Assembly: GCA_030324005.1 (NCBI GenBank)
Contig: JARDVH010000073.1
Span: 48,692,133-48,756,132 of the forward strand
Direction: 5' to 3'
Origin: Negaprion brevirostris
Taxonomy: Eukaryota
Length of the DNA stretch: 64,000 nucleotides
Position numbers and translations under genes: made by a program
In this document: positions 4,291 through 41,819 of the stretch, one piece after another
Position numbering within the stretch: position 1 is the stretch's first letter
How the letters are laid out: each line of letters starts with the position of its first letter
The notes under the pieces: generated by a model
Told to the model about the DNA's origin: nothing
Seen by the model: the letters and a program-made list of their open reading frames with translations, nothing else
Database searches by the model: none

Positions 4291-4419
4291 CCCCTGTGAG
4301 GATCTGTGCAACATTTTTCTTCTTTATAAAGATTCATTCAGGTATTAGTTCTGGCTCACAGCACAGTCATCAGATGGCATTTGAGTTTGCATCATTGTAG
4401 GGATGATCCAAACTCAAAA

Positions 4420-4720
4420 TCCTGGCTGACGCTGTCATGCAATACTGAGGTAGTCTGTGGATGATTTGTTGGGTGAACATTACTTGAAGACGAGGGGAAT
4501 TCTCCCTGCATCCTGTTTAGTACCTACCCCTTAACTAATAGCCTGGAAAGATGGAGTACTTGGTTATTGTCACTTTGCTCTTCATGTGGCTTTGCATAGA
4601 TTAAATGCCATGTTTCCTACATTACAACAATTACTACACTTCAAAAAAAGTCCAAAGACGGTGAAGTACTTTGAGATATCTTGAGACTTGAAAGGTGCTT
4701 TAGAAATGTAAGTTTTTTTT
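4420..4720 (+). mobile_element. degenerate DeuSINE (SacSINE1-like)
   Basis: 'gtttcctacattacaacaattactacacttcaaaa...gaaaggtgctttagaaatgtaagt' tail resembling this family. Confidence 0.55.
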
Positions 4721-4893
4721 AATATGTATTGCTTTTGTTGAGTGAGTTATAGCAGTTTAAAGCATAAGGTTTAAAGAAATATCCAGTGGAGAATTGCATC
4801 TTTTTGTTAAAGATCAAATTTTGGCGAGTGTGGTTGGATGTTGATGGATAATTGTTTGCATTACATTGACTAAGATTATTTATTTATTTTAAG

Positions 4894-4989
4894 GGTATAA
4901 TGTTGTAGTACGAATACCTTCAGGAGCAACTAATATTGATGTACGGCAGCACAGCTATTCAGGGAAGCCAGACGATGACAATTACCTTG
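4894..4989 (+). CDS. ADAMTS20: ADAMTS20 exon, spacer domain ([32 protein letters not shown])
   Basis: ttttaag|GG acceptor, CTTG|gtgag donor, 96 nt, phase 1-1; classic ADAMTS spacer motif [12 protein letters not shown]. Confidence 0.95.
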
Positions 4990-10900: not shown

Positions 10901-13900
10901 TTCTCTTTGTTGATTCCCCGCCTTGATACTTTTTTGCAATGCTTTGGCTTGTGAATGTGAGTTTGACGGGATGTGAGCCCTCTCAGCTTCCTTGATTGGT
11001 TTTAACACTCTGAGATGTTCCATATCATTGTTGTCCCTGTTTGGANNNNNNNNNNNNNNNNNNNNNNNNNNNNNNNNNNNNNNNNNNNNNNNNNNNNNNN
11101 NNNNNNNNNNNNNNNNNNNNNNNNNNNNNNNNNNNNNNNNNNNNNTGCACATTCTCCTCATGTCTGCATGGGTTCCCTCTGGGTGCTCCGGTTTCCTCCC
11201 ACAGTCCAAAGATGTGCGGGTTAGGTTGATTGGCTGTGTTAAAATTGTCCCTTAATGTTCTGAGATGCATAGGTTAGAGGGATTAGCGGGTAAATATGTA
11301 GGGATAGGGGGGTAGGGCCTGGGTGGGATTGTGGTCGGTGCAGACTTGATGGGCTAAATGGCCTCTTTCTGCACTGTAGGGCTTCTATGTTTCTATATCT
11401 GAGCATTCTATCTGCAACTGCTTAATGCTAACACATGGTGAAGCAAAATGAAAGGTTTACTTTTTCCACACAGTCCACACTTTGGTTGGCACAGCCTCAC
11501 AGCACCAGGGACCTGGGTTCAATTCCAGCCTTGGGTGGCTGCCTGTGTGGAGCTGGTATGTTCTCCCCATGTCTGTGTGGGTTTCCTCCCATGCTCCGAA
11601 GATGTGCAGGTTAGGTGGACTGGCCATCCTAAATTGGCCCTTAGTGCCTAAGATGGTTAAGTGGAATAACTATGGTAAATGTACAGGATAATGGTGGGCC
11701 TGGGTATGATGTTGTTTCAGACAGTCAGTGCAGACTCTGGCTTCCTTCTGCACTATGGGGATTCTACGATTGATGAACACCAAAAACCATCTGGTCAGAA
11801 AAAAATGTTATCATGTTCTTGTGAATATTCTGCAGAGTGAGTGCTTCTTGATAGAATTGAAAACGATTGACTTAAAAATATAAATAGCTCTGCTCTGATT
11901 CTAGGTGGCACGTAGTAGGTAAGAGTGAATGCACAGCGCAGTGCGGACCTGGGTACAGAACACGAGACATTCAATGCATGAAGTACACCCACAGTAAAGG
12001 ACCAAGTCAGCCCGTGGATGACAGATACTGTAGGAACCAGCCAAAACCTCCCAGTAGAGAGACCTGCCATGGAGACTGTCACAGGACTAGTTGGCATTAT
12101 ACATCCTGGTCACAGGTAATGATTAGAGTGAGCTACTTCACTGCCTCGCCCAGTGGATGGTCGAGTCTGGATTTTGTGATCAATATTTTTTAACACCAGC
12201 ACTAATGCATATATTGAATTTACCACCAGCGTTCAAAGTTCGTAATAAGGAAATCCATGCTCTGAAGTCAGTTTTTTTTCTGAAAATGTGCACTTTGAAA
12301 GGAGCCTTCTGATGATCATGCCTGAAATCTGTGAAACAGTGCATGCCATAATATAAGTAACATCCCCATGTACTGAAATGAAGTCCATGCAGAAAGAAGG
12401 GTTAAAAGGAGAGTAATCACATGTTTCTAATTCATACTTCAGTCCCATTGTGCGTTCCACTGCATTAAACCTCAATGATAGTTTTTTTTTATTTTCCTCA
12501 GTGTTCGAAAACCTGTGGTGGTGGAATGAGAACGCGGGAGGCATACTGCATGAACAACCTTGGCAGACATCTTGTTAACCAAGAGTGCAATGAGCATCAG
12601 AATGTCGTATCTCAGACATGCAATGAATTTCCCTGCCCTGAATGGACAGCCAGTGAGTGGAGTGAAGTGAGTAAAGCTTTAAAGCTTGTGCAAGGAATGC
12701 TTCTATCTATAAATTAATGTGCCAAGGCTACAGTGGCTGGCGGAAGTGCTGTTGGGTTTGGGCCACCAGGCAATATCTAGACATGTATCAAAGAGGGAGG
12801 AAATAACTGTCTGTGACCTATTCAGGGGTGCTCTTCTATAAAGAGCAGCTGAAGCCAGGGAGCTTGGAGTTTGCTTGCTCCCCAGGCTGATACCACATAA
12901 CCTGTGGAAAACTAAAAAGCAGTCACAATTATTATTATTTTTAAAATACACAGGCACCATCCGAATGAGTCTGATACTTCCTCAAATTATTCATGCAATT
13001 TTAAAATATGAAAGGCCATATTATTGATGTACACAGTCATTTTATGAAGAAAATTGGCATAAAAATTGTATTGCAAGAAACAGCAGTACGGACACAGGAA
13101 TTGGAATTGGTCATTCCTGCAGTTTGCTCCATCATCCAGTTACATCATGATTGATTATCATAATTTTATTTTGTCACCTTGGCTCCGTAACCACTCGAGA
13201 TCTTTATCCAAACATCATCTCGGGCTTTAAAATCAGTGTTGATCGAGCATCTACACCCTTATGGGGTGATAGTTCCAGATTCACCCCGCCTCCCCGCCTT
13301 TATCTGAAGTTTATGCTTCATTCCTGAGGAGCCCAGTTTAATTTTAAGTTTCTTATTCTGGATACGCACTTCTGAGAAAAGAGTTTCTTTGAATCCACTA
13401 TATTGAATTCCATTATCATTTTAAATACTTTGATTAAATCATGCTCAAGTTTCTAAACTCAATAGAAATACAAACCATCTTCATGCAATCTGTTCACAGA
13501 ACTGAATGTTTTAAGTTCACTATTGTTCCAGTGAACATGTGCTGTATACCTTCCAAGGCCAATGCCATGTTTGATGCAGTTAGTTTTGATGTACACTTGC
13601 CACGGATAACTCTTGGGTGCTGAGGCCTGTTATGTGCCCACTGCAGCATCACATAATTGAGGAGGATCTAGGTCAGTGTAGTCCCATACATCTGGCAGCC
13701 CCAAATTCACAAAAATAATGCTATTAGCTGATAGCTCCATAATGCATGCTCAATACCTGAACCACTCTTCAGTTGATTGTAAAATGCATGCTGCCTGGTG
13801 GGTTATTTCATCTATGTTAGCCAGGATCCTCTTTCTTTCAGGAGCAAGTAGTCCTATATTGACCCAACATTTGCTGCTGATACTACTGAAACAAATTGGA

Positions 13901-22900: not shown

Positions 22901-25900
22901 AAAAAATAGACATGGATAATGTTAGATTTTTGGTAAACTCAGGATAAAGGTGGAGTCGGAGGGCAAAGAATTTAATAGACAACAAAACCAGTTAAGGAAT
23001 TAGAAAGTGGAGAATCAGAGTAAAGGGTAGTTTTGGAGGAAACTAGAAAGTGATGTTCCACAAGGATCAGTGCTGGGGCTGCTGTTATTCAAATCTTACA
23101 CTAGTGTTTTGGATTTAGGAATAAGCAACTCAATTTCAAAATTTGCAGATGATGCCAATAAACTGGGGGCCAGAGCTAACATTGAAGAAGAATGCAACAA
23201 AATAAGAAAGAACATTAGTAAATCAACAGTCTGCACAGTTAAGTGGCAAATAACCTTTAATATAAATGAATGTGAGGTGATGTACTTTAGAAGGAAAAAA
23301 ACAGAAACATCACCTATATCTCAGGAAACAAGAAACTAAATGGGGTGGAAGAACAAAGTCCTAGAGAGATAGCTGAATAAATCATTAAACACCATGCAAT
23401 AGTCTGTTGACCTCGGGCGTGATTTTCCAGTCTTGGGGCGAGTGCGGCCGGAAAATCCCGCCCAGTATCTCAAGTCAATAAATAAATTTAAAAAGCTAAC
23501 AAATCACTAAAATTTAGTTAAAGAAGTATAGATTTCAAAACTAGTAAATCAAGTAAATCAATGTTAAACTTGTATCGGACCCTGGTCATACTGCACTGGG
23601 TATGCTTGCACAGTTCCTGCCTAGATCCTATAAAAAAGACATCAAAGCTGTGGATAAAGTGCAAGAAAGATTTACAAGAATGGTTACCAGAGCTAAAATG
23701 ATTGCAGCTATTGGGGAAGATTGAATGAGTTGGGGCTTTTGCTTATAAGAAAGAGAAGGCACGGTGGAGTCCTAATAGAAGGTTTGAAAATGATGAATGG
23801 GTTGGACATGTTCGATAGGGACTGAGACTTTTACTATTTCTGGGAGAATCCAAATCCAGGGACCATAAATAAAGATAATTATGAATAAATTCAGTGTGGA
23901 AACAAAGAGATATTTCTTCACTCAGAGGGTAGTTAGAACATGGATGAAGATGAGTTTTATGTTTTCAGACGGAAACTAGACAAGTACATAAGAGTAAAGG
24001 GAATAGTAAAATATGTTGAGAAGCTGGAGTTGAGGCAAATGGAATTGAAGGCGGCTCCTCTGGAGTCCACAGAATGGGCCATTTCTCTGTGTGATTATGA
24101 AAATTACTATAGAATCTGCTTCCATCATCCCTGCAGTGCATTCCAGATCAGAACATGTGAAGCACACACACACACACACACACACACACAACAAAGCTGC
24201 TAAAAGGAGCTAATCTTGGTCTAATGCATTAATATTGATCATTTCTTCTTTGTTTCATTTACCCGCAGTGTTCTGTCAGTTGTGGTTCTGGGACGGTAAC
24301 CCGTCAGGTTGTGTGCACTAGCTACCACCATCAAATCACAGAAGAGAGTGCTTGCAATGCCATGGAGAAGCCATCTCAGGAGCAAGAATGCAGTATGCCC
24401 TTGTGCCCCCGGACACATCACCAGCACGACTACCCTGCGCACTTCCCACAGCATGACTATCCACATCCCCATGCGGATTACCCCTCCCAGGATGTGACTG
24501 GTCAGAATGTGTGGAACAGCCCATCAAGGGGGAGTCAATGGAGGACAGGACCTTGGGGAGCAGTAAGTGATGTGCATGGCTAAAAGGAATTTTGTTGAAC
24601 AGAATTGATCACTAGTTCTTTATTTTTTCAAGGTGTATATTTCAGAAAAACTGAACATTTCAAAACTAAAGCCAATAGATTTTTTTTAGGGAAGGCTATT
24701 AAGGTTTACAAAAATAAGACGGTAAACAGAGTTAAGATATCGATCAGCCATGATCTAATTTAATGGCGTAACATCTGAATGGCACACTCCTGTTTGAATG
24801 TAAACACAGTGCTGCAAGAAGCAAATGATAACGAGCTCTCAAATTATAAAGTAACCTCCAAAACTGGATGAGCACAAAATTGTCAGGTGCTGCTTTTTCA
24901 CTTACAATATTGAGTTTTTCTAAAAACATTTAGAGAAAGCTTATAAGAGCTGTCTCCTATCTAGAGATAGCGTCATTGAAAATAAGAACAGTGGGAAGGA
25001 TATTGTACCTTCTCTGAGAGCTCTTGACTATACTGAATATTTCATTCACAGCCCCAGGATTAGACTTTTTGTCACCTGTCCCTAATACCTCTTCATGTGA
25101 CTTGAATTCAACTTTTATTTGATAATGTTCCTGTGAAGTGCCATGGATATTTTACTATTTTAAAGGCATTATGTAAATACCAGTTATTGCATTGTTGTCC
25201 GTCCTTTGCCCAATCTGCCATGCACTAACCAGTTGACTAAAGAGTTTGTAAAGACGATAAAGCATAGTCGATCTTTACCTTTCAAGACCACTTCATAATG
25301 AACTAACTAATACTGAATAATGTGTTGACATCAAAAGATAATTTTCCTCACTTGGCGTTCCACGCATCCAGGAATTGGTGTGCTGCCATGCTAGTTTTTG
25401 AGTGAAAAATCATGTCATGTACGCCACATTTCCATGACGCACAGGTCAGCAGATTTGTGTTCCCTCCATCAGCCAAAAACACGAAAACCACATCCTAATT
25501 GTTCTAAAAATTGTCTATGTGTGGGTCAGGAATCTGAAGTTCATATGGAGTAAGAATCCATTTGATCCTGCTGCTTTGTCAAAAGATTTAAGACCCTAAA
25601 CTGAAGTGATTTTCCGGAGTTGCTTATTGACAAACAAAATATTTCAGTGCTCCAGCACCTGCACAGGTGGATTTCAGCGTCGAGTGGTTGTCTGCCAAGA
25701 TGTAGAAGGACGCACCGCCAACTACTGTGATGAGAGAGCGAAGCCTGCAGAGACCAGGCACTGTGATGCTGGAACCTGTCCTCATTGGAATTACGGGAAC
25801 TGGGGAGAAGTATGTATTCTGAGAATTGAATTGCATTTTCTAGAATTGACTTGATGCTTAAACATTGTGCTTCACACCCTTTCAGTTCTCTGTTGAAGTA

Positions 25901-28507
25901 CTTTATATTTACTGTTTAAGTTTTTTGATCATGACTTTTCATGAACAGCACAATTGATCTCATTTTGCACGTAGTTATCTATGATAATTGTGTGCTATTG
26001 CTACAGATATATATATAATATATATGTATGTGTATGTGTGTGTATATATTGTTTTTATGTTTTAGGGGACTGTTTATGGAATCAACTCTATTCTGCAGGC
26101 AGTTGGTGTGTCTGGAAAACATGTAGCTCAGATGTTGGGGGAGCAAGATAATTGCTCATTTTAGCTTTGTAGTGTTTACTTAGGGTAGAGGGAATAGATT
26201 TTTTTTGGATTGAATTTCCCCTGGCATTTTGATTAAAGGAATGGAAGGTGGGTTTAGATATGCAGAGTCACATGATGATGTGATTAATGGGAAGAGTGAG
26301 GTAAGGAGCAGAAAAACAACTTTTCAGTTCTCAATTGCTTAAGATGGAGCTTTTCTGAAAGCTGAAACTCATTCTCGCTCTCTCAAATCTTCCAAGACTG
26401 TCTGCATTCATAATAAATATATTTATGGATGCTGATTGTACTTAAAGTGACATTGTAAGTCTCAAAGAAGAATGTTGCTTGTTTGGAATTAAAACAGTGA
26501 TAAGTTAGAAATTAAAGTTGTTTCCTTTCATTTTTAAATATTGTTCAACTGTTAATAGTAAGCTGCTTCATTTGGTAGAGTTATAATTAAACTGTGTTAT
26601 TAAATAAAGTTTGTCTTACTATAAAAGATTCCTAATTTCTCAGTGGAATTGCTCCTGGAGCGAAATATCCTTTCCTCATATTAATGTCAAAATAGAAAAT
26701 TTATTGGGGTCTCATCTGGCTTCATAATATACATTGGGGTTCTGGTCTGGGACCCTAACATATCCTAAATAATATCCTTACACTCTGCCCTTGTGCTTGG
26801 TACTTGTGTAGTCAAGACCAAGTTGCTGAAGCAATTGACTAGATGTTACCCCACAAAATTTTGACTCCCAAAAAACTGTGATGTTTGGCTGCTCACTACC
26901 CAAACCCATTCATGACTGCATTTAGAAAATCATCAAAACGTTTTTGCAGATTTTCCAGTCAGTTGATGTGTTGTTGAAATTTGTTTCTGCCTTTTGCTTT
27001 TCATAGAATCCCTTCAGTGCAGAACAAGACCATTCGGCCCATCAAGTCTGCACCAATTCTCCAACAAAGCATTTTATCAAGGCCTAGCTCCTGCCTTAAT
27101 CCCATAACCACACATATTTATCCCGTTAATCCCCCTAACCTGCATATCTTGGGACACTAGAGGACAATTGAGCATGGCCAACACTTAACCTGCATATCTT
27201 TGGATTGTGGGAGGAAACCCATGCAGACATGCGCCAAACATGCAAACTCCATACTGATAGCTGCTTGTAAACAATGAAGAAACATATTATTTAAATCATC
27301 TGTTCAGTGGTATCACTTGCTTGCTGTTTTGTTGATGGTGTGGATGGTTTCCTGAGTGGCTGCACAATAGTTCGCACTGCTGCCTTACAGCACCAGGGAC
27401 TCGGGTTTGATTCCAGCCTCAGGTCACTGTCTGTGTGGAGTCTGCACTTTCTCCCTGTGTCTGNNNNNNNNNNNNNNNNNNNNNNNNNNNNNNNNNNNNN
27501 NNNNNNNNNNNNNNNNNNNNNNNNNNNNNNNNNNNNNNNNNNNNNNNNNNNNNNNNNNNNNNNNNNNNNNNNNNNNNNNNNNNNNNNGGATTTTCACTAT
27601 AACTTCATTGCAGTGTTAATGTTAGCCTAATTGTGACTAACAAATAAAAGTTTAAAACTTAAGTGGATTACACACACAATGCCCTCATAGCTATGAAGGC
27701 AGATATCCTGGCATGGGTTTGTCTAAGTCATGAGTTTCTCAGACAATCAAAGCTTTGAAATTGTTGGGTTACACAATCATGAAGTGATCTTCAGGTGCCT
27801 TGCCCCTAAAAGCACTGGAATTTCTTCCCTGGCCTTTGAAACAGTTCTTAAATCCTATCTTTTGGTCATCTATCCTAACATCTCCTTAGGTGGCTCTTGC
27901 CAGTGTTTTTGTTTGATAACACTCTGGTGAAGGGCCTTCATTGGAACATTTTACAATTTAAAGGAGCTTGTATAAATCCTGGTTGTTGTTGTCGATGGGT
28001 TGTGTTGTGTGTGAAACAACCACAGAATCCAAAAGCAATCATTTTGCCTAATGCTTTCAAAGCCTGTATTTGATGATTGCGATATTTTGTTTACAAGCAT
28101 AAAAATAANNNNNNNNNNGTTGCTGACTCCCCAACAAAATTCTATAATCAGAAAGCCAGTAAAGTCTTTGTGCCAAGACTAATGACTGATTGATCAAAGA
28201 CTGTGCAGCCCTGGCTACATGTTGTGGATTTAGCCTGTTAAGACACTTGGGATCATATCCCATTGTATTGCAGTTGTCATTTAACATATTGTCTGCCCTG
28301 TTCTCATTATGGTTTCTGATTGTTGTCCAGTGTACACAACCATGTGATGGTGGAACAAGAACAAGACTGGTCATCTGCCAACTTCCACATGGGCAAAGAC
28401 TGAGTGACCAAAGCTGTGATATCTTGGAGAAGCCTCCAGATAGGGAACAGTGCAACATGCATCCTTGTCCTGGTGGTGTTTCATGGCATCGAGGACCATG
28501 GAATTCG
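4894..28507 (+). CDS. ADAMTS20: ADAMTS20-like metalloprotease gene, internal multi-exon segment (spacer domain plus TSR array); gene extends upstream and probably downstream of the window
   Basis: 13 exons with AG/GT boundaries and matching phases splice into one open frame. Motifs as I recall them favour ADAMTS20 over ADAMTS9: [53 protein letters not shown]. Confidence 0.88.
5500..5810 (-). mobile_element. shark tRNA-derived SINE (second family; also at 22430-22790 on - and 50725-51065 on +)
   Basis: shared core 'gtaggccagaccaggtaaggatggcagatttccttccctaaaggacattagtgaaccagat' in three copies within the window. Confidence 0.8.
6283..6500 (-). mobile_element. V-SINE with the alternative tail
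   Basis: reverse complement of the 8447-8722 family (tttattagtgtcacaagtag...). Confidence 0.75.
6500..6800 (+). mobile_element. DeuSINE (Deu domain)
   Basis: 'cactgtcagaggtgcc...agatgagatgttaaatcaaggcc...aagatcctatgg' matches the Deu core as recalled. Confidence 0.65.
6943..7109 (+). CDS. ADAMTS20: ADAMTS20 exon, spacer domain ([56 protein letters not shown])
   Basis: tttaag|CG acceptor, CAG|gtagg donor, 167 nt, phase 1-0. Confidence 0.95.
7329..7458 (+). CDS. ADAMTS20: ADAMTS20 exon, end of spacer/start of TSR ([43 protein letters not shown])
   Basis: ctag|GTT acceptor, CAAG|gtaaac donor, 130 nt, phase 0-1. Confidence 0.95.
7526..7775 (+). mobile_element. 5'-truncated HE1-like SINE with an internal 52-bp tandem duplication
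   Basis: unit 'caaagatgtgcaggttaggtagattggccaatctaaattgccccttagtgtc' at 7526 and 7578, partial third at 7630. Confidence 0.8.
8296..8422 (+). CDS. ADAMTS20: ADAMTS20 exon, TSR ([43 protein letters not shown])
   Basis: tacag|GG acceptor, AAG|gtaaaa donor, 127 nt, phase 1-2. Confidence 0.95.
8447..8722 (+). mobile_element. V-SINE with the alternative tail, 25 nt after an exon donor
   Basis: tRNA head 'gcacagtggttagcactgctg...ttcaattcc', tail 'taatgtaagcctacttatgacactaataaat'. Confidence 0.8.
10041..10370 (+). mobile_element. HE1-like SINE, near full length
   Basis: gggcagcacggtagcactgctgc...ggttcgattcc (A/B boxes), V-domain, tail 'ttctatgatt'. Confidence 0.85.
10372..10472 (-). mobile_element. 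Penelope-like element terminal fragment with a degenerate hammerhead ribozyme motif
   Basis: minus strand 'agctttgacagtgggtcatccggacttgaaatgtcagctcttttctctcctgacagatgctgccagacctgctgagattttccagcattttct' resembles shark Penelope pLTR ends. Confidence 0.6.
10475..11045 (-). pseudogene. unidentified CpG-rich coding-like fragment (possible retrocopy), truncated by a gap
   Basis: protein-like frames on the minus strand linked by a frameshift, with one in-frame TGA; many CpGs, unlike the flanks. Confidence 0.35.
11146..11770 (+). mobile_element. two tandem HE1-like SINEs (11146-11395 and 11483-11770)
   Basis: each matches the 10041-10370 copy. Confidence 0.8.
11905..12115 (+). CDS. ADAMTS20: ADAMTS20 exon, TSR ([70 protein letters not shown])
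   Basis: ttctag|G acceptor, CAG|gtaat donor, 211 nt, phase 2-0. Confidence 0.95.
12502..12666 (+). CDS. ADAMTS20: ADAMTS20 exon, TSR ([55 protein letters not shown])
   Basis: polyT tract + ctcag acceptor, GAA|gtgagt donor, 165 nt, phase 0-0. Confidence 0.96.
13085..13565 (-). mobile_element. degenerate CR1 LINE 3' end
   Basis: antisense CR1 tail ('caggaattggaattggtcattc...') and 3' ORF2 remnants. Confidence 0.55.
14370..14560 (+). mobile_element. DeuSINE fragment
   Basis: 'ccatctgccctctcagctagacataaaagatcccatggcacta' Deu core. Confidence 0.65.
15066..15230 (+). CDS. ADAMTS20: ADAMTS20 exon, TSR ([55 protein letters not shown])
   Basis: ttttag acceptor, CAG|gtgagt donor, 165 nt, phase 0-0. 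Confidence 0.96.
15996..16115 (+). CDS. ADAMTS20: ADAMTS20 exon, TSR ([40 protein letters not shown])
   Basis: ttttcactag acceptor, CAG|gtaaag donor, 120 nt, phase 0-0. Confidence 0.95.
16185..16575 (+). mobile_element. Rex1/Babar-clade non-LTR retrotransposon 3' end
   Basis: degenerate translation [20 protein letters not shown]...PGHSL...[17 protein letters not shown]; ends in aatcaaatcaaa. Confidence 0.7.
16866..16973 (+). CDS. ADAMTS20: ADAMTS20 exon, TSR end plus linker ([36 protein letters not shown])
   Basis: cccag acceptor, CCA|gtaagt donor, 108 nt, phase 0-0; QWRFGSWTP motif. Confidence 0.94.
17494..18519. mobile_element. non-autonomous DNA transposon (PIF/Harbinger-like MITE), AAT target-site duplication
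   Basis: termini '...gattctccc' and 'gggagaatc...'; AAT at 17491-17493 and 18520-18522; an inverted sister copy lies at 60727-61611. Confidence 0.75.
18890..20330 (+). mobile_element. degenerate CR1 LINE 3' part, interrupted by an antisense L2-like fragment (~19185-19800)
   Basis: RT C-terminal remnants ('gttctccttggaatagagaaagttaagagatgacataata'); antisense ...[15 protein letters not shown]2-like text. Confidence 0.65.
21270..21434 (+). CDS. ADAMTS20: ADAMTS20 exon, TSR ([55 protein letters not shown])
   Basis: (gtt)n-gcag acceptor, TCT|gtaagt donor, 165 nt, phase 0-0. Confidence 0.96.
22330..24110 (+). mobile_element. degenerate CR1 LINE RT region with a nested SINE (22430-22790) and a mini-MITE (23415-23463)
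   Basis: [27 protein letters not shown] motifs. Confidence 0.8.
24163..24190. repeat. (CA)n microsatellite
   Basis: cacacaca run. Confidence 0.9.
24269..24562 (+). CDS. ADAMTS20: ADAMTS20 exon, TSR plus His/Pro-rich linker ([20 protein letters not shown]...[11 protein letters not shown])
   Basis: cccgcag acceptor, GCA|gtaagt donor, 294 nt, phase 0-0; ends in QWRTGPWGA. Confidence 0.95.
25648..25809 (+). CDS. ADAMTS20: ADAMTS20 exon, TSR ([54 protein letters not shown])
   Basis: tttcag acceptor, GAA|gtatgt donor, 162 nt, phase 0-0. Confidence 0.96.
25980..26760 (+). mobile_element. putative solo LTR with a 4-bp TSD (TATC)
   Basis: ends in ...ctaaca at 26760; TATC at 25976-25979 and 26761-26764; internal AATAAA; 5' end reads TA rather than the canonical TG. 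Confidence 0.5.
27002..27650. mobile_element. head-to-head SINE pair: HE1-like (-, 27002-27255) and V-SINE alternative tail (+, 27357-27650)
   Basis: both match other copies in the window. Confidence 0.75.
28331..28507 (+). CDS. ADAMTS20: ADAMTS20 exon, TSR ([59 protein letters not shown]); read-through adds VR and a stop at 28514-28516
   Basis: gtccag acceptor, weak TCG|gtacga donor, 177 nt, phase 0-0. Confidence 0.95.
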
Positions 28508-28516
28508 GTACGATAG

Positions 28517-31500
28517 TATTCTTTCTCTTTTTCTCGAGTGTTTGTATGAATCTACTCACTAATAATTGCAGGGAGATGTAATTAATTTTGTTCCTGAATG
28601 TAACATAAGCAGTAGGCACACAAGGAAATCTTTATGAGGAGAAGGGAGGGGTTAGAAGGCAAGCTGTTGCCAGGGATACATTCCACATAACTGTTCCATT
28701 TTCAGGTCAAGAACTGAGTTGGTGCTTTATGATAAACAAAAGACATTATTAAAGTCCTGTTAACCCAACAGCCTTTGAAGAATTTGGCTTCAATAGCCAC
28801 ATATGCCTAATTATAGAACTAAATAGCTGGCTGGTTTTAGATGTAGAAAGGAAACATTTTTATACAGGAAAAAGTAATGGTAATGTATGATTTGTTTTCC
28901 ATTGGTTTCACTTGGTTAATGGTTATCCTGTAATCACCATGAATAATTTGTAAATTTGTGTATAGGGAGTTCTTTATTAATAGCAATGGATCAAAACAGC
29001 AACACATGAAAAGCAGATCATTTGTATAATAGTGTAATTTTGTACAGACTGTATCTTTAATGTTTGTTTTAACTATGAATGCAATGAGGAAACTTTTTTA
29101 TGCACATTTTTTTAAATGCTATTTTTCTGAGGGGTGCTATTAATATCCACAGACACACTTTAAGGTCTGTATGCAAAAAAGCAACAAGAGCAAAGATTGC
29201 ACAATGGAAATGATGTGGGATTTGCTGTAATAAACCCTCTTCTCATTTCACAATCTAATGCAATGTATAACAAATGCAGATTGTACATGGACGGCAGAAT
29301 ATAATTAAAGTAACTTAGCTCTATTATCTTATATATGTAAAATACTTAAAATGGAAGATGAGTATTTATCTCATTATTGATGAACACTCTTTCTAAGTTC
29401 ACCAAGGAGCTGGATTCCATTCTCTTGGGCCTGTTCCTTGCTGAGAACCTCCAGTCACAGTTGGTGGATGCTCCATTAATGTCAGTGGCAATATTCTGAC
29501 ACAAAAGGGCAGTGACCCATAAAAACTACATGAGGAAAGTTGTAAACATTACAGGTACAAAAGTACCTGACACTTGAGGGCATGCTACCTCAGGATACAT
29601 TGAATTGAAGAGAATCAGATCAGTGCTATAGGAACTATTCTTTTTACTGCATTGGAAATGACTTAGTGACTACAAGTTTCATTGTGGTTACTTGTTTGTA
29701 GCATTTAACAGATGAATACCTCTAAACCTGCTGATCCAGGTACAATAGAACAAATTGCAAAATACCTCCATTCACTTGTGGTGACGCAACTTTTGATACT
29801 TCCTTTGTTACCAGCATTGTGAAAATTTTTAACTATATCTTTGAGCTTTCTGTTGACACTCAACACTGCAGTGTTTGGAGTTCTTACAGACTACAGGCAA
29901 CTGATCCTTTCATTAAACTAATTGGAAGTGTGGCAAAATCTTTCTTTTCCTGTTTTACCTTTTAAGGTACATAGTTATATGACAAATATTGCATATTTGC
30001 TCATACAGAAGATGGGTAAGCAGTTGGATATGTTACTTATTTGGCCTGTTTATATTGGTTACACTGGTAAACTCACTCTGAGCTATGGTTGCGGCAAGTT
30101 TCTCTTGCTGACAACTTGATATTTCACCTTGGTGGCCAGTGTGTCATTACCCTTTAACTATTACCAAACAAAATGCTTTAGGTTTTCTATCTTTATGTCA
30201 AACTGTGATCTTATAAGTCAATTGATTACATGTTTTAAGTCAAAGATCAATATTTTTTACTTAATCTTTGAATAATTTCCTTCCCAATCTGACTTATTTT
30301 TAAATTCCCGATCATCCCTTATTCTGAATATGACTATCTGACACTGATAGAACCCCTTTAAGTCAGTCAGTATTACGTTAATTTTTAATCTCCAATTCTT
30401 CATATATTTGATTTAAGTCCTCTTCCCTCATAAGAATACAATTGCTATCCCTCATCAGAGTAAGCCGAAGATATCACAGTGTCCTTGAACTTTGATCGTG
30501 AAACCAGAATGTTAGAGCACTTTAAGGAAATTGATTGCTCATTTTAAATTCACTGGGAAATATAAGAGGTGTTTGAGTGTACTGCTACATAAAAACTGAC
30601 CTCAATTACCCATTTATAGGCCATCATTGCAAAGGCTTTGTCCAGGCAGATTATTTTATTCCTCTTGAATGAGAAAGGAACCTTAATATTTGCAGTAGCA
30701 GTGAAGATCATCAGAGGCTGGAAAAAAATATCAGCAAAGGCTTACCCGAAGTATGTGCCAACCTTTAGTTATTTGAACTCAAGTGGATATAGTTGGATAA
30801 CCATCAAACGTGACATTCTTTTCTCATATTAGTCAAGAAAATAACCCAAAAGACCTGCTCAAGGTGCTCATCATTTCCATGGAAAGAATTTTGACCAAGC
30901 TTTCTAAGTCCTTCCACACATGAAGCTCTCATTTTAGGTGTGTTAATGATGAAAATGTGACACTCTCCTCACCACTCAGGCCCAAATGAAAAAGGTTAAG
31001 AAAATGCTTTTCAACAAAGAAACTGTTAAGTTTTATTCAATTGAGCAGAATTAAATTTAATTCTAAAGAAGACCTCACATTGCCTGCCAGGTATCATGTT
31101 CGAGTAGCCAGCAACAACCATGTTCTCTGTCAATGATGGATTGTAAATAATAACGACTTGTTCACTCAGCAAGTGTGATTTGCATTTTGATTTGCTTTTT
31201 TGTCAGTTTGTCCTGTGTTTCTCAAGTCAAATATTGTGATCTTCCTGTTTTCTGTTTGCTAACATTCATGTGTTCACGATGCAATTTATTTTTGTTGGCC
31301 CGTGCTTCTATTTAATACACTCTTCATTTCTTGTTACTTGTAAATTGTGATGCATGACTTGCCTAAGGCACTGTGAGCAAGATCTCCATGGATAAGCCCA
31401 CCTTTGCCCATCTGAAATAACCAGTAGGTAAAATGCTGCATCATCAGCGCTGAAGACACTTAAAATCCTTTTTTTAAAGTGTATTTATTTTTACATTCTT

Positions 31501-31630
31501 TCAGTGATAATATTTATTTTAGATGACATATGAAAAAATAATTACTTTGTTCACAAACTTATTTTCAAATTGTAAAATATTAAAGAGTACAATATTGTAG
31601 AATTTATCTGGTGTTTTTATTATGGTGCAA
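28517..31630 (+). promoter_or_regulatory. putative alternative 3'UTR of a short ADAMTS20 isoform (intronic polyadenylation)
   Basis: AT-rich, no recognisable SINE/LINE over ~3 kb; AATAAA at 29229; ATTAAA at 31579 followed by a GT-rich element; TGTAAATA at 31142; TATTTATT tracts; miRNA seed matches. Confidence 0.55.
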
Positions 31631-34600
31631 ACTATTGAAATCTTCAATAAGTCATTTGTCAAAATTAGTTTCATTAGACTATGGACCACTGCTTCAATGG
31701 TTTAGCCCATATCTTAGAAGCCGATTACCTGCAAGTTGTTGGTCTTTCACTGGTCTTTGATTGCAGCATCCTGGGTGAAAGCTTCTACTTTATGAAATGC
31801 CTTTTTTCCAGTCAGCTCTTCCCCGCTTCCCAACATGCAGTCACTTCTGTTTAAGGGACCACATCTTTGATTTTTGTGCAGCAGCTCTGCAAGGGCTGCC
31901 TGCTCGCGATTCAACATTCTGGTGATGGCATATAACTCAAACAACATAGTGAGTTNNNNNNNNNNNNNNNNNNNNNNNNNNNNNNNNNNNNNNNNNNNNN
32001 NNNNNNNNNNNNNNNNNNNNNNNNNNNNNNNNNNNNNNNNNNNNNNNNNNNNNNNNNNNNNNNNNNNNNNNNNNNNNNNNNNNNNNNNNNNNNNNNNNNN
32101 NNNNNNNNNNNNNNNNNNNNNNNNNNNNNNNNNNNNNNNNNNNNNNNNNNNNNNNNNCTGGTCTTCATCTTTCGCCACCCATCACTTCCTGTGCTGTGTG
32201 CTGTGATTATATTGATATACAGAAATAATGGGGCAGGGACAGACCAACTGGTCTTTCAAACCTGCCACACACTGGTGCTGATGGTGAGAGCATTATGACC
32301 ACACACTTTCTGCCATCCAACAGCCATACAACCACCTCAGAGGAGTAAGAAACAGAAAAACCCTGGGCCAATAATGGGGAAAAAAGCTGCTGTGAAAATT
32401 CCTCTCTGGCCATGTTGGGTGGTCTAAACCAGCCCAGGAGATTAAACATGATGCCTGTAAAGTCACTTACCTTCTATATGATTTTTAAAAAATTACCCCA
32501 TTCCTTAATTTACAAAGCCAATGCATATAGTATACAGGGCAAGCCCTTAATCCATCTCCAATAACCAATTCAAATTTAAATTGAATCCAATTCATGGTCC
32601 TCACAAGAGAGAGAGAGACACAAGATCCAAACTGACAAGAAAAGGCATTGCACCCCATCTTGGATTTGATCGGGCACTTAATCTTAGTCAAAAGATAGCG
32701 AAGATGAGGTGAAGGTGTGCGGAGAGTCAGCATTCACCATATAAAAATTAATGAGGCTCTCCCAATCCAACTTTTTGAAGCTTAGTAACTAGTTTCACTG
32801 TGATGAATGCAGCAGTGTTAATGTTCGCTAATGATGAACCAGACAGAGAGTACTGAAAGTTCTGAGCCACTGGCTCTGCTTTCCAGGGTTTATAAATGTT
32901 AGGTTGTTAACTCCACAGTGCAAAGTTCAATTCTGTGATGTTTGTGTGGGGTTGGGAGTGAGTTGGCAGATGAAGCATAATAGCAGAATGATATTACCCT
33001 GAGCTTTACCTTTCCCCACTGTTTCCACACTGTTTTATACCGAGATGGTAGCCCTCCTTCCAATGGAACCAAAGGCTTGTAATTTGCAACAATCAATTCT
33101 TCTGCAATCGATTTCTGTTCCCTTGCATTGGGTGGCCTCTAGCCATATCAGCAGGAAACTCACCTTGACAGGTTGTAAGTTGAAGAAGCACCTACTTAAT
33201 TCTGAGGGTCAAAGAAGCACAGAAGGAGACCATTTGGCCCAGCAAATCTACGTTGACATAATGGGTGGTCAGTGCTAGTTGATAGGCTGGAAAACCTGCA
33301 GCACTTCCAGTATAGCTGAAGTGATGTAAACATATGGGAAGCCCTTTCAAAGTATCAGTAGCCCAAATCTCCAAAAAATAGGTTGCAGCCAGAACATATT
33401 GGAGTGTGATAGCAATAAAAGTACATTGCAGCCTCTTGCCATATCAGTAGGGAAGGCATTGTATAATGCTAATTGTATCATTTGAAGTTAAGTATAAATG
33501 GGTGGACAACATTGATTGGATGATTACTTGAGCACACATAAAGTGATACTGACATGAGTAGAATGGAGTCAGGAGATCAGTGCCTGTAATATTTCACTCT
33601 GTGAATAAATCAAATACACAAAGATTGGCTTTGCATTTTCCTTTACTAACTTGGCTATTTACTTTCATTCTTATATTGGATGTGGGTATTACTGGCTACA
33701 TCAGCATTTGTTGCCCTTGAAAAGATGGTGGTGAGTTGCCTTCTTGAATCACTGCAGTCCGTGCTGTTAGGGAGGGAATTCCATGATTTTGACCCAGTGA
33801 CAGTGACAGAATGGCACTACATTTCCATGTCAGGAATGGTAAGTGGCTCGAGATGCAGAAGCTTGCAAGTGGTAGTGTTTCCAGATCTATTANNNNNNNN
33901 NNNNNNNNNNNNNNNNNNNNNNNNNNNNNNNNNNNNNNNNNNNNNNNNNNNNNNNNNNNNNNNNNNNNNNNNNNNNNNNNNNNNNNNNNNNNNNNNCAGA
34001 TCTATTAGGGATATAATAGTGTGAGGGGTTAGTGAGGACCAGTGGTAAATGTAGCCCATGTTAGTAGGCAACACGAGTGGCAAACATGTTGAATTGCTGC
34101 CATCTGGAGAAAATAGCCTGGAATGCATAACAGGCCACCCAGACCAGCACCCTTAATTTACCACATAACAACCAGGGGTTTTGTTGTAAACACTTGGAAG
34201 TTACTGCCTGAATCCCCTTAATCAACAACATAATTTAGATTTTAAGGGCACCAAAATGTAAACCTTGCAGTTTTTGGTGACTGAAATGGAGTCACTTTGC
34301 ATGGCACTATAAACGTCAGTAAATCTAGAGCAGGAAACAAATGCTACTTTTCAACAGACCAATATCACAAATGTGCTTTGTTGAGATTCAGCCCTGATTT
34401 TCTGGTAGGACAGGATCATTCTGCCAAAGAGGTCTCAGCAAGCAACAAATCATATCAGAGGATTTTATGGCCTTGTCTGTCCCAAAACCGTAAAATCCTA
34501 CACGAGGTTAATGGTCCTTTCCATTATCCAAACCTCACCTGCTCCGATTCCGATAGCAGGCGGGACAGTAAAACTCCGGCCATATAGCAGGGACTCCTCA

Positions 34601-36539
34601 TCAATTCCCACCTCAAACCTGACAGAAATCACTAGATGTTTTGGCTGACAGGAGATCACTGCCAGTGATTGCAGGAACTGATCCCAGTAGTGATGAGGCG
34701 GGCAGAAGGGGTGTCACTCACAATTGAAGGAACCAAAGTATTGGGGCGGTGGGGAGCGTTAGGGCTTTTTTGTGGGGCCCAAAGCTGTTCTTCCTGGCCC
34801 TCAAGGAAACTTGGAAATATTTTTCAAAAATACAGCTTGGAATTTCTGGACCATCAATCCAGCTTCTGGCAAGTCGGCTTTGAAGAGAAATCGTCATTGT
34901 TTTCCACCACAGCATCTCTTGAAATAGCAGATCAGGATCTTCCATGATGTCATTGCAAGATCGTGATCTGCTATTTCAAGTCATGCTGTACATATTTCAA
35001 GTTGACTTGGGATGGGTACCCTTTGCCTGCACCCTCCCTTGTTGCTTTGCTGGACTTAACTGAGGCCCTTGGTCAGCTTCAGAGTCAAATGGATTCACTC
35101 TTGTGTTACCAGTGAACTGCTTCCAGAATTGCAGCTAGTCCCTACAACTCCCTGAAACTGACCAACTGAGGATGGCAGGCCACTTTGTCGTGGTCCAACC
35201 TAATGAGACCTGTGCAGCAGCAGAATGACTCTGTGATTCAGACCCCATTCCATTTCTAGACTCAAGCGTACAAACTGCAGACGACTAAGTGAAGCACATG
35301 AAGTGGCTGAGTAAGTAAATGATCTCCATGAATAGGAATTGACTTCGGAAGTCTAGAAAAGACATGGTACCAATAAAACTTCTATTTCATTAATGACTAG
35401 GACAAAAAGGATAAGCAAAAATTTGACTGACCAGGCAATATTCAAGAAAATATGGCATTTGTAATCTTATTTTCAATTAGATCATCTTTTTTGGTGTGCT
35501 ATCAATTAAATGTGGCTCTTTTGCTGTAACTCAAGAGAGGCTTTTTAAGTAAGATGTTGTACAATGACCACCTTCTCTCTCAGAATGTCTACTGAGGAAA
35601 ATTGCTCTGAACCATGACAGAAACATAGCCTGAAGCACTTGTTTGTTTTCAGATCGTTTAAATAGTTATCTTTGTTTTGTTCTGAAAGTATATGAGAATT
35701 TTTGACAGCAGCATACTAATGAAGCTGTAAATCTCTGTGCAACCAACCTGCTCTCTCAACTATTGTTAGAATTGTCTCACTGAGATGTGGGGATTGTTTT
35801 AACTCAGGACAGGTGGGGCTGTGAAAGGTGAGGGAACTCCCCACCCCCTCTGTGGGGAATATAGCTTCAGGCCTGGGCTACATTTGAACGATTGAGAATG
35901 GTTTCTCTCCTGTCTGGGTTGGCGGAATAGGTGCAAGACTTGGGTCAAGACCCAAGGGAATGATGCTCCGCATGGTTAACATTTAGTAAGGGGCTTTGGC
36001 AGCTGATAATGATGCCAGGAAGAGGCAGACAAATCCAGAGTTGGAGAATTGCAGGGTCTGTGAGGGAAGAGATGGTGATTGGCAGCATTCCAGCTCCTAC
36101 TGATCCACAAGAACCTGACAAAAAGAACATCTTTTAAAAATAGTTCTTCACCTCTGCTGGCCACATAGACACACCAGCCGTAGTGCAACTATCGAAGTTG
36201 ATCTTGTGTGGACCTTGCAGATGTAGGTTAAAACGTCCTTGTGCATTGATGTTACCACTGGGCCATGGCTTNNNNNNNNNNNNNNNNNNNNNNNNNNNNN
36301 NNNNNNNNNNNNNNNNNNNNNNNNNNNNNNNNNNNNNNNNNNNNNNNNNNNNNNNNNNNNNNNNNNNNNNNNNNNNNNNNNNNNNNNNNNNNNNNNNNNN
36401 NNNNNNNNNNNNNNNNNNNNNNNNNNNNNNNNNNNNNNNCCATTCCCCCCCCCCCACAACCTTTCAAACCATGTATGTCAGGCCAGTTTCACTACTTCAT
36501 GCATTTTATTGTGTGAAAGTTCTTCCAAAAATCAGAGAA

Positions 36540-37870
36540 TGGCACTGAAGGCCATTCTGCCTGTTGAATCCACGCTGATTTTCTGCTGGAGCAATTTAGC
36601 TAGTTCCACTCCCCCTCACTTTCCCTGTGGTGCTGCTAATGTTTTCTCTTCAAGTGCTTATCTCATTCCTTTTTGAAAGCCTCAATTATATTTGTTTCCA
36701 CCTCACACTCAGGCAGCGATTTCTTTGACAATCACTTTAAAATGGTGTCCTTTGGTTCGAGGCCCTTCCACAGATGGGAACAATTCTTCTCTAATATCTC
36801 TGTCTAGAGTTTTCATGATTTTTGAAAACTTCCAGTTAAATTCCTTTTCAACATTCCATAAGGAGAGCAACCCCAGATTTTCCAACTATCTACAGAGCCG
36901 AAGTCACTCATTCTCAAAACACTTTTCTGCACCCTGCCAGAATTGGACACAATACTCCAGTACTGCAAAAATCCAATGTTTTATAAAGGGTCATCATAAC
37001 TTCCTTACTTTTGTACTACTTTCTCAACTTGTCTTGCCACCTTCATCAATTTGTGCACATATAACCCAGCTCTCCGTCCCAACACTCCTTTTAGAATTGT
37101 GTCCTTTATTTTATATCACTTCTCATTCTTCCTCGCAAAATGAATTACTTTACATTAAATTTTGTCTGCCACTTACCCACTCATTCCACCAGCTTGCTTA
37201 TGTTCCCTTGAAGTGTCTTAGTATCTTACTCATAGATTTTCCAAGCTTTATGCCATCTGCAAATCTTGAACAACCATTGACCACTACTTTGTTTTCCGTC
37301 ACTCAGTTAACTTTGTATCCACACCGCCGCTATCTCTTTTATTCTATGAGCTTCAACTTTGATGCCTATTTGATAACATTTTATCAAATGCCTTGTAGAA
37401 ATCCATGTGCATCTTATGAACTGGATTACCTTGATAATACCCTCTGTTAACATGGATTACCTTTAACAAATCACTGCTGTCATTCCATAAATTAATCCAC
37501 ACTTACCCAAGCATTTGTTATTTTGTACAGGATTATTGTTTTGGATTACTAAAGCTTTCCACCACCAAAGTTAAAGTGACAGACCTGTAGTTTATCCTTG
37601 CACCCTTTTTTTGAACAAGGGCATAATATGAGTCATTCTCCCGATTTTTGACATTTCTTGACATCACCCCTACATCTTAGGAGAATGGCCAGTGCCCCTG
37701 CAATTTCCTGTTTTGTTTCCCTCTGCATCCTTGGGTACCTCCCATTCAATCCCAATGATTTACTAACTTTAGATACTTCACTTACAATACTGCTTAATCA
37801 ATTTTAGCCCAACAGTATTTCAACCACCCCCACTTTCACAGTCTTTAGTAGCATCTCCCTCCTTGATGAA
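36540..37870 (-). mobile_element. degenerate CR1 LINE
   Basis: antisense RT remnants ('atgccatctgcaaatctt', 'ttatcaaatgccttgtagaaatccat', 'gacagacctgtagtttatcc'). Confidence 0.7.
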
Positions 37871-39377
37871 GACAGTTGGAATTTTTTAGCTTGGGAGTTT
37901 AAAGTTCATGTAAGCAGATCTAAAGTAGTTAGAAGTCATGAATTAGCATGTGTATAATATGCTCATAAATGTATTCATTTACATAGGATGAAGTCCTCTG
38001 ATCCCTCTAGTAATGGGAAGTTTAGGAATTCTGTTCCAAGGATCTTAAAGGTGGGTCAAACTTCCCGACAAGCGATGATAGGAAGCCCTTGTTGACACAT
38101 TAGCAGGTCATGCATATTCAGTAAAAGGTCACCTTGCCAGAATTAAGTTCCCCCTCCAAACTAATCTCCCCGCCAGTGAGTTATTGTAAAGTTAACTTTA
38201 ACGGCTGCACATAGCTGGCGTGTATGACTTCTTCCACAACTTTAAGGTGAGCAGATGCTGTTTCCATCTTTTTGGAGACCAGTCACAACTTGACGCATAC
38301 CAGGTACCGGTAACAAAAGCTGTGCTGAGGCTGAATACGAGAGGCGGGAGAAGGGAGGCTGTCAGGGAGCCCTTTAAGTATGGACCTTGGCCTCTTGAGG
38401 TAACGGCAGGAAATAACTCTTCCTGTTGCAAATATGCACGGATACATATTTAATAAGCTAACCATTGCAGGATCGTGCATGGTCAGCTGACCTGCACCCG
38501 CAGTAAAAAATATTGCGACTCCCACTTACTCCACCAAACTTAGACTTCAGAATGAAAGTTTCCATCCAGAGAATGAACTTTGCAAAAGAAATCTAAAATA
38601 TTCAACAAAATTGATGACTGGCAGGTGCAACTGAATTTCTTTTACAAATTACTAAAGGTTTTTTTGCCTCTATAAAAATTAAACATAGGATTTTTGACCA
38701 TCTGGAATTGTCATATTGAACTGATTTATAACCAAGACTTCATTAATGTGTCTGAACAGGAGTGCCATGACATTGCCTTGATATGGATACGGTTGTCAAG
38801 TTGCATCACCTTTAGATTGAGAAGATGTGTAAACTACTTTTAATGGAAAACATATATCTTTGCCTTCTGCAGCCGAAGTTTCAGTCTTCAGCTAAGCCAC
38901 AAGAATTTACTTACCTGGAAAGAAATGCTTCTTGTAAATAGCCGATCCATAATGTTGTTTCAAATGAGCTTGAAATTTCCTGATCTTACAGCTCAAGTCA
39001 TCTACCAACTTCCTCTTCCTCTTGTAGATTAATAATTACCTACTTGCCCTCCCATTGGCAGCTATGCCTTTAGCCGTTATGACTTTGTGCTCTAGAATTC
39101 CTTCAGCAAAACTGTCCACCATCCCTCCTCTTATGTGCCTCTCCTTATTACCCACTGCAATGGCCAAAACTTTAATCACCCTTCCTTCGTGTTATTGCAC
39201 CTTGGTGAAGTATGTTGGATATTTTTCTGCCTGATAAAGATGTTTGAAGGATAGTTGTAATAGTTGACTTGCTGAAATTTCCTTTCTGGCCTAGCCTGTT
39301 CTCTATCTGTATTAACCCTCTAAGATATGAAGTGAATTCACATGGAAACCTCTTGCTCTTGAGCCTCGAAATAAAAT

Positions 39378-39640
39378 AAAATGTTGCATTTATATAGCAG
39401 CATTCATGACCTCAAGATATGTCAAATTACTTGACAAAACACTAAGTACAGATTATGCACAGCAAGGTCCCACAAACAACAGTATGATGATTTGACAAGG
39501 TAATCCATTTCAGTGATGGCAGTTGACAGATGAATGTTGGCCAGGACACCAAGGATAACTCTCTTGCTCTCATTTGAATAGTGACATGAAATCTTCCACT
39601 TCCACCTGGGAAGTAAGTTTACCACCTCATCTGAAAGATA
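39378..39640 (-). mobile_element. DeuSINE (SacSINE1-like)
   Basis: 'ttgcatttatatagc...gcacagcaaggtcccacaaac...ggccaggacacc...cctcatctgaaaga'. Confidence 0.65.
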
Positions 39641-41819
39641 GGGTGGGATTCTCCAATCATTCAAGTCAATGGGATTTCCTGGTCCTGCTGCACTGAACAG
39701 ACAGTTGGCTGAACAAATTCAATGTCCTTGCTGGCAGAAGCGGTAGGGCATGAATGACTTCAGCATTCCAGCCATAGTCTCCTCAACAATGTCATCAGGA
39801 GAGTACAGTTGGAGAATAAATGTTTTTCACAGTGAGGAAGAATCTGAAGGGCATTCTTTCAACCTGACTGGAGCAGTTGGTTCGACAAGAAGACTCCGAG
39901 TCAAGAGGGAACCTAAAAGATTAGAGGAAAACAGCTCAAAGTGAATTAATTTGCCACTATGGTGTGCTTCTCCCGCAGACAGATTGTCTAGTTTAGGTGT
40001 ATGCAGCCATGTATGTTAAAACAATATTATTCTGAAAATACCTGAAAAATGTTAGCCAGCTGCCAAGTTAAATGGATTTTTAAAAATGGGTTCAGTTGGT
40101 ATTTTTAAAAGTGAATTGCCTTTGGTTTGATTGCCAACCCTGCTCCTCGCCTATTAATGCCACATTTCAATAATGACAGCAGCTTTTCCCCTTGCATTGT
40201 GTGACCACCCATCAGAATTAATTTATCTGGAGAAATGAATAGTTTGCACTAAGTAAGGATGCAGAAGTTCCATCCTTTTCTGAAATCAGAGTCAATGATT
40301 TATCAAATTTTAGTGATATTTTAACTTGGGAATTTAGTTGATGTTTTACTTCTAAAAACAGTCCCTAGAATTAAATCATGGATTTTCACTGCTGATCATG
40401 CAGTTCAATGTATTTATTATCGGAACAGAACAGGACAATTTAAAAAATGCAAGGGGCCCTGATTCAGGGATTCTTGCATGCGTTCCAATTTTTACAAACA
40501 CTGAATAATGGTGTGGATGATGAGCCCATACCCTGCATAACTAACTTTAGCTGGCTCCATGCCGGTGGGGGGGGGGGTGGGAAGACACGTCATTTATGCC
40601 ACTCCTTGAGTCTTCCTGGGGTCCAAGCTTCTCCAGGACTTGTGATTCACAGCTGTTCAAGAGGAGTTGTGAACCATCGTCTGGATTTAGGAACCTTTTT
40701 AACAGGTAAATTTAAAAGGTGTTACCTAACTCCCCTCATATCCTCATGACCCCTGCATATGAGCAACATAATAGCAATGGCAACTCTTTGAAATGCTCGT
40801 GAGAAAAAAAACTCAATGAACATCTAACTTGAAGAAACTGATTTGGCCAACTGTTCTGTTGCTACAGTTGTCAGATAGCCTCATTATAAATGCTTGGCTC
40901 AGCTCCAAGATACTATAATAGAATCAGCTTAGGGGGTCAGTTTAGACAGCTTTGAAGGTGAATGTTGTCTTTGACATGTTTATGAGCTTAGAATAAGTTA
41001 CTCTTCCTATGATGTAATTTTTCAATGTCTGTGTTTAGTTGAACAAAATTAAAGGTATGAAATGACTTATAATAAACAATGATAATATGAATGGCTGCCT
41101 GACATTTTTGAAAGGTTGTAAGAACAGCAGTATTTAACAAAGAAGATTTTTGCATGGGTGTCGTTTCATGAGAATTTCAAAGGCTTGCTACTGTTATACT
41201 GTCATTAGTTCTATACATAGTTCATATGGATGAGAGGGCGTGGAAGTGGCTTGGAATATAAGGGGCTATGGAGGGGACATAGGAGGTATGTGAGGGATGA
41301 GGAAGAAAGGGTCTACCAGCTTTAATACAACCCAGACGAAGTCCCATTGACGCACGTCAAGTCTTCCAACCAGCCAGCTCAGCAACTGCCCACATCTGTG
41401 GCCACCTCTGAACTAATTCCGGAGGAAGTGAGTCTGACTCTATCCTCCTCAGCATTCCTCAGAATCAAGATATCGGACCCTTCTAAAGCAGACAAGTCCA
41501 CCTTGACTTTCATGCCTCCTCCACAAAAATCTGGCCCCACGTGTTTACAGATATTTTTCTGAAATTGAAATTTTTTCTTTACAGTAGTATTATGGAAGTG
41601 ATAGCATTATTGTACAAAGATACCATGTATGTTTATACAGGATAAGGAGAAATAACAAATTGAATTGCTAATACAATATTAGAGGCTGCACAATGAAGAA
41701 CAATTGGATTATTCTCTGGTGAAAGAAATCTTGTAGCCATGAGGAATAAAATCATGTCTAACATCAGATATCTGTCTGGTTTCAAATTATATGAACCATA
41801 TAATTTGTCTGTTCATATA

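Follow-up and report, generated by a model that had tools for sequence, protein, structure and literature searches.

A weak, invariant splice donor with an immediate stop behind it suggests a short form of ADAMTS20 conserved from sharks to mammals

Can one exon of a shark protease gene serve both as an internal exon and as the end of the message? The question arises in a 64,000-nucleotide stretch of Negaprion brevirostris DNA (contig JARDVH010000073.1, positions 48,692,133 to 48,756,132; hereafter the window), where the exon at 28331-28507 on the plus strand ends in a poor donor and a stop codon follows two codons into the intron. Thirteen colinear exons at 4893-28507, located with tblastn, match residues 735-1430 of the 1914-residue ADAMTS20 of the catshark Scyliorhinus torazame. 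Their summed identity is 92% to the closest shark ADAMTS20 model (P0030) and 90% to the S. torazame protein; it is 85-90% for six other shark ADAMTS20 proteins versus 61-62% for two shark ADAMTS9 proteins. Because identity to the seven shark ADAMTS20 proteins (85-92%) exceeds that to ADAMTS9 (61-62%), and the spacer and thrombospondin type 1 repeat (TSR) exons are colinear, the gene is, on sequence grounds, shark ADAMTS20. An earlier note on this DNA, made from the letters alone, had proposed that a deeply conserved short isoform arises here by donor read-through and intronic polyadenylation. We consider it probable that the exon is a conserved composite internal/terminal exon, in which a weak donor, a long intron and intronic polyadenylation allow one gene to encode two enzymes, and that this arrangement has been held since the jawed-vertebrate ancestor.

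Past the donor, the shark reading frame runs ...GPWNS-V-R-stop with TAG at 28514-28516, which confirms the read-through reported earlier at 28508-28516. The codons Val-Arg-stop (GTA CGA TAG; 28508-28516, plus strand) would form the C-terminus of the predicted short isoform, with the same ending as mouse NP_001158257.1. At the other eight phase-0 donors of the window, read-through continues for 6-31 residues. Among 1707 9-mers starting with GTR, 92 have a stop at codon 3 and four read Arg-stop; this chance level is a generous null, real donors being richer in Arg. The curated mouse isoform 2 (RefSeq NP_001158257.1; UniProt isoform 2 of P59511; 1425 residues) ends GPWKS-VR at the junction where mouse isoform 1 reads on into CSASCG, lacks the GON domain and has nine TSP1_ADAMTS stretches versus 13 in the long form, which bears out the earlier note's mention of a mouse short isoform that ends in VR and lacks the last TSRs and GON. 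In a comparison made at the protein level, the shark sequence shares the exon junction, the Val-Arg-stop and the loss of the last four TSRs and GON with mouse isoform 2; unlike the predicted shark form, the mouse form is backed by a cloned cDNA. Silver et al. (2008) built the short mouse cDNA from E17.5 embryo mRNA, and Adamts20-expressing cells cleaved versican (PMC2265537). A second curated short form, mouse isoform 3 (P0210, 517 residues), seems to end by read-through at a far earlier donor, and its matching exon lies outside the window.

The Val-Arg-stop is kept from cartilaginous fish to mammals, as had been anticipated. Fetched proteins with a best-domain score of 60 bits or more against a profile built on this exon were classed by best hit, giving 310 ADAMTS20 rows at the junction. 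Of these database models, 279 go on with Cys, so this donor also serves splicing to a downstream exon; 26 start with Val, that is, they read into the intron, and five enter other predicted exons. Among the 26 intron-entering proteins, which are non-independent and mostly predictions, 23 end VR, two end V (Xenopus tropicalis and Pleuronectes) and one, an Apodemus model, continues. The named VR proteins number 12 from 11 species (catshark, paddlefish with two, gar, arowana, three further teleosts, poison frog, horned lizard, swallow and mouse), and the poison-frog protein is the only RefSeq model listed for that frog; the matches listed included no primate ADAMTS20. All eight unnamed gene calls from raw contigs (three bird-like, five teleost-like) end VR. 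They are the least biased rows, since such calls run to the first stop whatever its position; the search for them covered representatives of 32-105 residues, and very long tails could be hidden. In 306 of the 310 rows the exon ends on Ser, Pro or Leu, a pattern that would fit a codon ending in CG and the decay of that CpG; decay of CGA to TGA could likewise account for the two proteins that end in V.

The conservation is also seen in the DNA. A metagenome scan returned ten loci, three of which (L001, L002 and L003; one bird-like and two teleost-like, with lineage labels taken from protein identity) are this exon; none of the ten was an ADAMTS9 locus, and the other seven (L004-L010), which are unrelated TSR genes or chance matches, were dropped. 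The alignment of the first intronic nucleotides across vertebrates that the earlier note had suggested shows that the 11 bases of the donor, CG|GTACGATAG (28506-28516, plus strand), are identical in the shark and all three vertebrate contigs, and that two CpGs are retained where about 1% of regional sites are in CpG. Intron positions +3 to +12 match the shark at 9 of 10 bases in each contig, and five other homologous donors match at 4, 4, 6, 3 and 1 of 10. The identity between classes is centred on the splice site and fades a few bases past the stop.

This donor is weak, as its letters (TCG|gtacga) had already suggested. Its pairing with U1 is -4.3 kcal/mol, the joint weakest of nine phase-0 donors (range to -14.8), by a crude measure that uses the U1 5'-end motif and covers all but four upstream donors. 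A C-to-A change at +4 would keep Arg and give a predicted pairing of -8.2 kcal/mol, and it is present in none of the four DNAs. The nucleotide signal rather than the dipeptide looks selected, because V-only ends exist and the synonymous positions are fixed; selection on the Val-Arg dipeptide itself is ruled out by these two observations, and the simplest reading looks to be selection for a weak donor plus an immediate stop. The donor of the preceding exon (25810-25818) pairs equally weakly with U1, and its sequence is not conserved in the bird-like or teleost-like DNA.

The exon at 28331-28507, bounded ag|TGT...TCG|gt, comprises 59 codons that cover one TSR body and the first strand of the next TSR, and encodes a TSP1_ADAMTS repeat (E 3e-11). 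Models of related sharks, rays and chimaera splice at the junction equivalent to 28507 into CSVSCG and about 484 more residues including the GON domain, and some long-form shark models are 100% identical over the exon. Because these models splice there, the long form has it as an internal exon ahead of a long intron; in the short form it would likely start the terminal exon. The description of it as the last exon therefore suits the short form and fails for the long form, since all related sharks splice a long, GON-bearing form at that donor. The long-form intron (28508-64000, plus strand) exceeds 35 kb, and the next exon is absent from the read part of the window. As had been stated before, no further exon is evident there: tblastn with three chondrichthyan long proteins found no exon for residues past 1430 in the remaining 35 kb, where runs of N of up to 923 bases could hide one.

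The candidate intronic 3' untranslated region (UTR) at 28517-31630 (plus strand) has 34.5% GC, is single-copy and evolves more slowly than the downstream intron, as judged from the depth and divergence of genomic contigs. Contigs of three runs, which are genomic rather than RNA and of which only the longest pieces are listed, were mapped on 27600-40000, and whole-genome contig depth was used as the repeat test, self-BLAST being too insensitive for it. Ten consecutive bins (28014-32153) are single-copy and 14 of the 20 other bins in 27600-40000 have repeat depth, in line with the AT-rich, repeat-free 3.1 kb that had been described past the donor; the accompanying claim of a repeat every 1-2 kb in the rest of the window did not hold, as self-BLAST leaves gaps of 5.0, 3.8, 4.2 and 12.7 kb elsewhere. 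In two diverged shark runs, 68 of 4207 and 74 of 4335 sites differ in the contig that covers 27.6-31.9 kb (1.6% and 1.7%), compared with 174 of 5661 and 224 of 6946 sites in the listed pieces from further downstream (3.1% and 3.2%; p about 1e-6). A small part of the slow divergence is explained by lower CpG content. Divergence is 3.9-4.4% in the first pieces beyond 32158, and the slow block therefore ends a few hundred bases past the distal of two candidate poly(A) signals. Roughly the first 3.6 kb after the donor are single-copy, with about half the divergence of the intron further on.

These signals were ranked by a simple downstream GT/T score over the 103 hexamers of the window. The proximal candidate, AATAAA at 29229-29234 (plus strand), has a poor downstream element and ranks 63 of 103. 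The distal candidate at 31571-31627 (plus strand) combines TGTA, ATTAAA (31579-31584) and a GT/T-rich run (31608-31627), ranks 4 of 103 and sits close to where the conserved single-copy block stops. The candidate UTR could plausibly end there, near 31.6 kb. A scan of 27600-33000 gave no Rfam match inside the candidate UTR, and neither strand of the block has a stop-free frame of more than 86 codons, with three frames of 70-86 codons. Outside the candidate UTR, a sub-threshold match to U2 small nuclear RNA on the minus strand at 32488-32707 (24 bits, E 0.069) overlaps a stretch of repeat depth and is probably a decayed U2-derived copy or a chance match.

Several observations weigh against a conserved composite exon. 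The AATAAA, the ATTAAA and the GT-rich run named in the earlier note are all present, but hexamers occur at chance density (6 in 3.1 kb versus 1.6 per kb overall), and hexamer counts were dropped as UTR evidence. Since the slow contigs also cover the exon and about 700 bases of intron before it, the low divergence is not attributable to the UTR by itself; the contrast weakens when it is drawn with single-copy flanks alone (p 0.001-0.17), and the two diverged runs belong to the same branch as the window. The candidate UTR has no similarity to the bird-like or teleost-like DNA past the first 15-25 bases or so. On the protein side, the mouse equivalence is at the protein level, and the non-mouse VR proteins are gene predictions, some of them ('partial') perhaps guided by the mouse isoform. 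No VR ending occurs in the 41 chondrichthyan RefSeq models among those listed (53 of 63 cluster members listed); this is weak counter-evidence, because none of the 30 automatic rodent models listed ends VR either.

The paralogue ADAMTS9 adds a further point of this kind. At its homologous donor, the V-R start is present in 17 of 18 read-through proteins and a stop follows within three residues in 16 of 18 (P0347-P0349, P0363-P0374, P0428, P0483, P0489): 14 read VRP-stop, one V-stop and one VRS-stop, and two have long VRSW tails. The VRP-stop proteins are mostly close amniote-like relatives plus one teleost-like protein, and both long-tailed ones are teleost-like. Compared at the protein level, ADAMTS9 resembles ADAMTS20 in its V-R read-through with an early stop in most proteins, but has an extra residue (Pro or Ser) before the stop and has lost the stop in two teleost-like sequences. 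Because V-R persists in these two of 18 even without the early stop, part of the donor signal may serve splicing alone. The donor could then be kept only for correct splicing of the long intron, through a non-consensus site or a bound protein, with the Val-Arg-stop a by-product and the short mRNA mouse-specific or a minor leak. This account, which we consider rather unlikely, draws on the V-R-(P/S) reading at the same donor of ADAMTS9, on the shark RefSeq models without the short form and on the lack of UTR conservation between classes. It does not explain why the stop at +7 to +9, at the edge of U1 pairing, is nevertheless kept in all four DNAs and in 23 of 26 proteins, or why both V-ending proteins stop too. 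Moreover, splicing of a long intron would gain from a stronger site, and the mouse has a curated transcript ending here.

The composite-exon reading accommodates these observations. Here a weak 5' splice site heads a large intron, an in-frame intronic stop precedes the candidate poly(A) signals, and the donor is also spliced, as in composite terminal exons, whose published signature is a weak donor with a large intron (PMC3708835). From the sequence, its conservation and its equivalence with the mouse isoform, we infer how the short form would be expressed in the shark, where it would be cleaved and what it would serve. If U1 binds the donor and the intron of more than 35 kb is spliced out, the gene would give the long form, of about 1914 residues with four more TSRs and GON. 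The weak donor and the length of the intron would give cleavage time to act; if intronic cleavage and polyadenylation won this race, the mRNA would end in the intron, most likely at the ATTAAA at 31579 and possibly at an earlier site, and the product would be a protein of about 1432 residues with a Val-Arg end, like mouse isoform 2. From the jawed-vertebrate ancestor onwards, selection has likely maintained both the weakness of the donor and the stop behind it. The short enzyme would retain its catalytic part, as the mouse short cDNA that cleaves versican does, and would lose GON. The switch may therefore tune trafficking or uptake rather than catalysis, a role we propose because the GON domain of ADAMTS9 bound LRP1 in a two-hybrid screen (PMC6393521) and is needed for transport from the endoplasmic reticulum to the Golgi (PMC3338439).

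An architectural parallel is intron 3 of CSTF3 (CstF-77), in which a weak, conserved 5' splice site heads a large intron (33 kb in human) across vertebrates, and whose poly(A) signal is, like the shark candidate, of the UGUA / AUUAAA / GU-rich type (PMC3708835). Short CSTF3 RNAs act as a feedback attenuator without an apparent protein product, and the sequences of the CSTF3 poly(A) elements are conserved, whereas the predicted short ADAMTS20 is a near-complete protease and no poly(A) element of the shark gene can be aligned between classes. An ancient intronic polyadenylation site could likewise attenuate full-length ADAMTS20, with the short protein mattering little. The likeness to CSTF3, as well as the dispensable dipeptide tail (V alone in two proteins), would suit such an attenuator. 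We nevertheless regard it as improbable, as the short form retains most TSRs along with the propeptide, the protease, the disintegrin-like domain and the spacer, its end coincides with a clean boundary between repeats, and the enzyme made from the mouse cDNA is active (PMC2265537). In FLT1 intron 13 (sFlt1; PMC2926593) and the secreted/membrane switch of IgM (cited in PMC3708835), donor read-through also leads to an intronic stop, an intronic poly(A) site and a shortened C-terminus. Those switches remove a membrane anchor, whereas that of ADAMTS20 would remove TSRs and GON from an already secreted enzyme and add two residues.

Two further explanations fare worse. The conserved bases and the repeat-free block could be a DNA-level element, such as an enhancer or a protein-binding site, that overlaps the exon end and is unrelated to RNA processing; the slow single-copy block may indeed reach upstream of the exon, but the identity between classes has its centre exactly at the splice site and stops a few bases past the TAG, and the mouse isoform ends at this place; we give this explanation very little weight. 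That the gene truly ends here in this shark through loss of the downstream exons, or that the gap is an assembly effect, is hardly credible despite the 35 kb without a later exon and the several runs of N downstream, as every related shark, ray and chimaera cluster has the long form spliced here, including proteins identical over the whole exon.

The ADAMTS9 pattern hints that the donor is older than the ADAMTS9/ADAMTS20 duplication. A Narcine ADAMTS9 model (isoform X5, P0057, a RefSeq ray model of 1417 residues) ends exactly at the same junction with no added residue, a hint that both paralogues can terminate there; a described ADAMTS9 isoform ending at the homologous junction was not found. 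The motif ACTAAT (28558-28563, plus strand), of the QKI type and 51 bases into the intron, is a weak lead to regulation: it occurs no more than 60 bases from the donor in the shark, in the bird-like and in one teleost-like contig (L002, 4793-4798; L001, 757-762), though not in L003, and its distance varies. It is found at none of 12 other donors, and some shared 6-mer arises in 13% of shuffles. QKI binds ACUAA and, where it acts after an exon, is linked to inclusion (bioRxiv 10.1101/2020.12.22.423880). We tentatively suggest, as a possibility with the odds against it, that the switch predates the duplication, with both genes keeping a weak, CpG-bearing donor and an early stop, that ADAMTS9 makes an undescribed Val-Arg-Pro short form without GON, and that QKI, bound shortly after the donor in the intron, sets the ratio of long to short. 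If so, vertebrates would have a tissue-specific way to uncouple both proteases from GON-dependent trafficking.

The other features of the window belong to the upstream part of the gene. Twelve ADAMTS20 exons at 4893-25809 (plus strand), found with tblastn and with the borders of the last eight read, encode the spacer and TSR array (residues 735-1371 or so of the catshark protein). Between TSR arrays, a linker exon at 24269-24562 encodes a stretch rich in His, Pro, Asp and Tyr with short repeats. The upstream introns (1276-11670 and 27001-27662) are dense in a dispersed repeat family of about 250 bases, which resembles a short interspersed nuclear element in size and copy number.

Taken as a whole, the interpretation in the earlier note is partly supported: it was largely right on the gene, the mouse VR end, the conservation of VR-stop and the weak, invariant donor. 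The mouse short isoform itself was already known, and two human ADAMTS20 splice variants have been noted, the longest being used (PMC549037). The deep conservation of the mouse short isoform was not found in print; a search of mostly open literature gave no comparative study of this isoform, its splicing or its polyadenylation. In the parts of the text available, the ADAMTS evolution papers PMC549037 and PMC4349717 do not discuss conservation of the short isoform, and neither do PMC3712723, PMC12226136 and PMC10267602.

An 11-base signal unchanged in sharks, teleosts and birds, CpGs included, suggests that selection on the choice between a GON-bearing and a GON-less enzyme is both ancient and strong. 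ADAMTS20 has roles in pigment-cell survival, palate closure, digit-web regression and cilia, and its short mouse isoform has so far been used mainly as a handy cDNA. Annotations outside mouse that hold only the long form may be incomplete. As a silent change at +4 is predicted to shift the gene to the long form only, the role of the short form and of the GON domain would, in mouse or fish, be directly testable.

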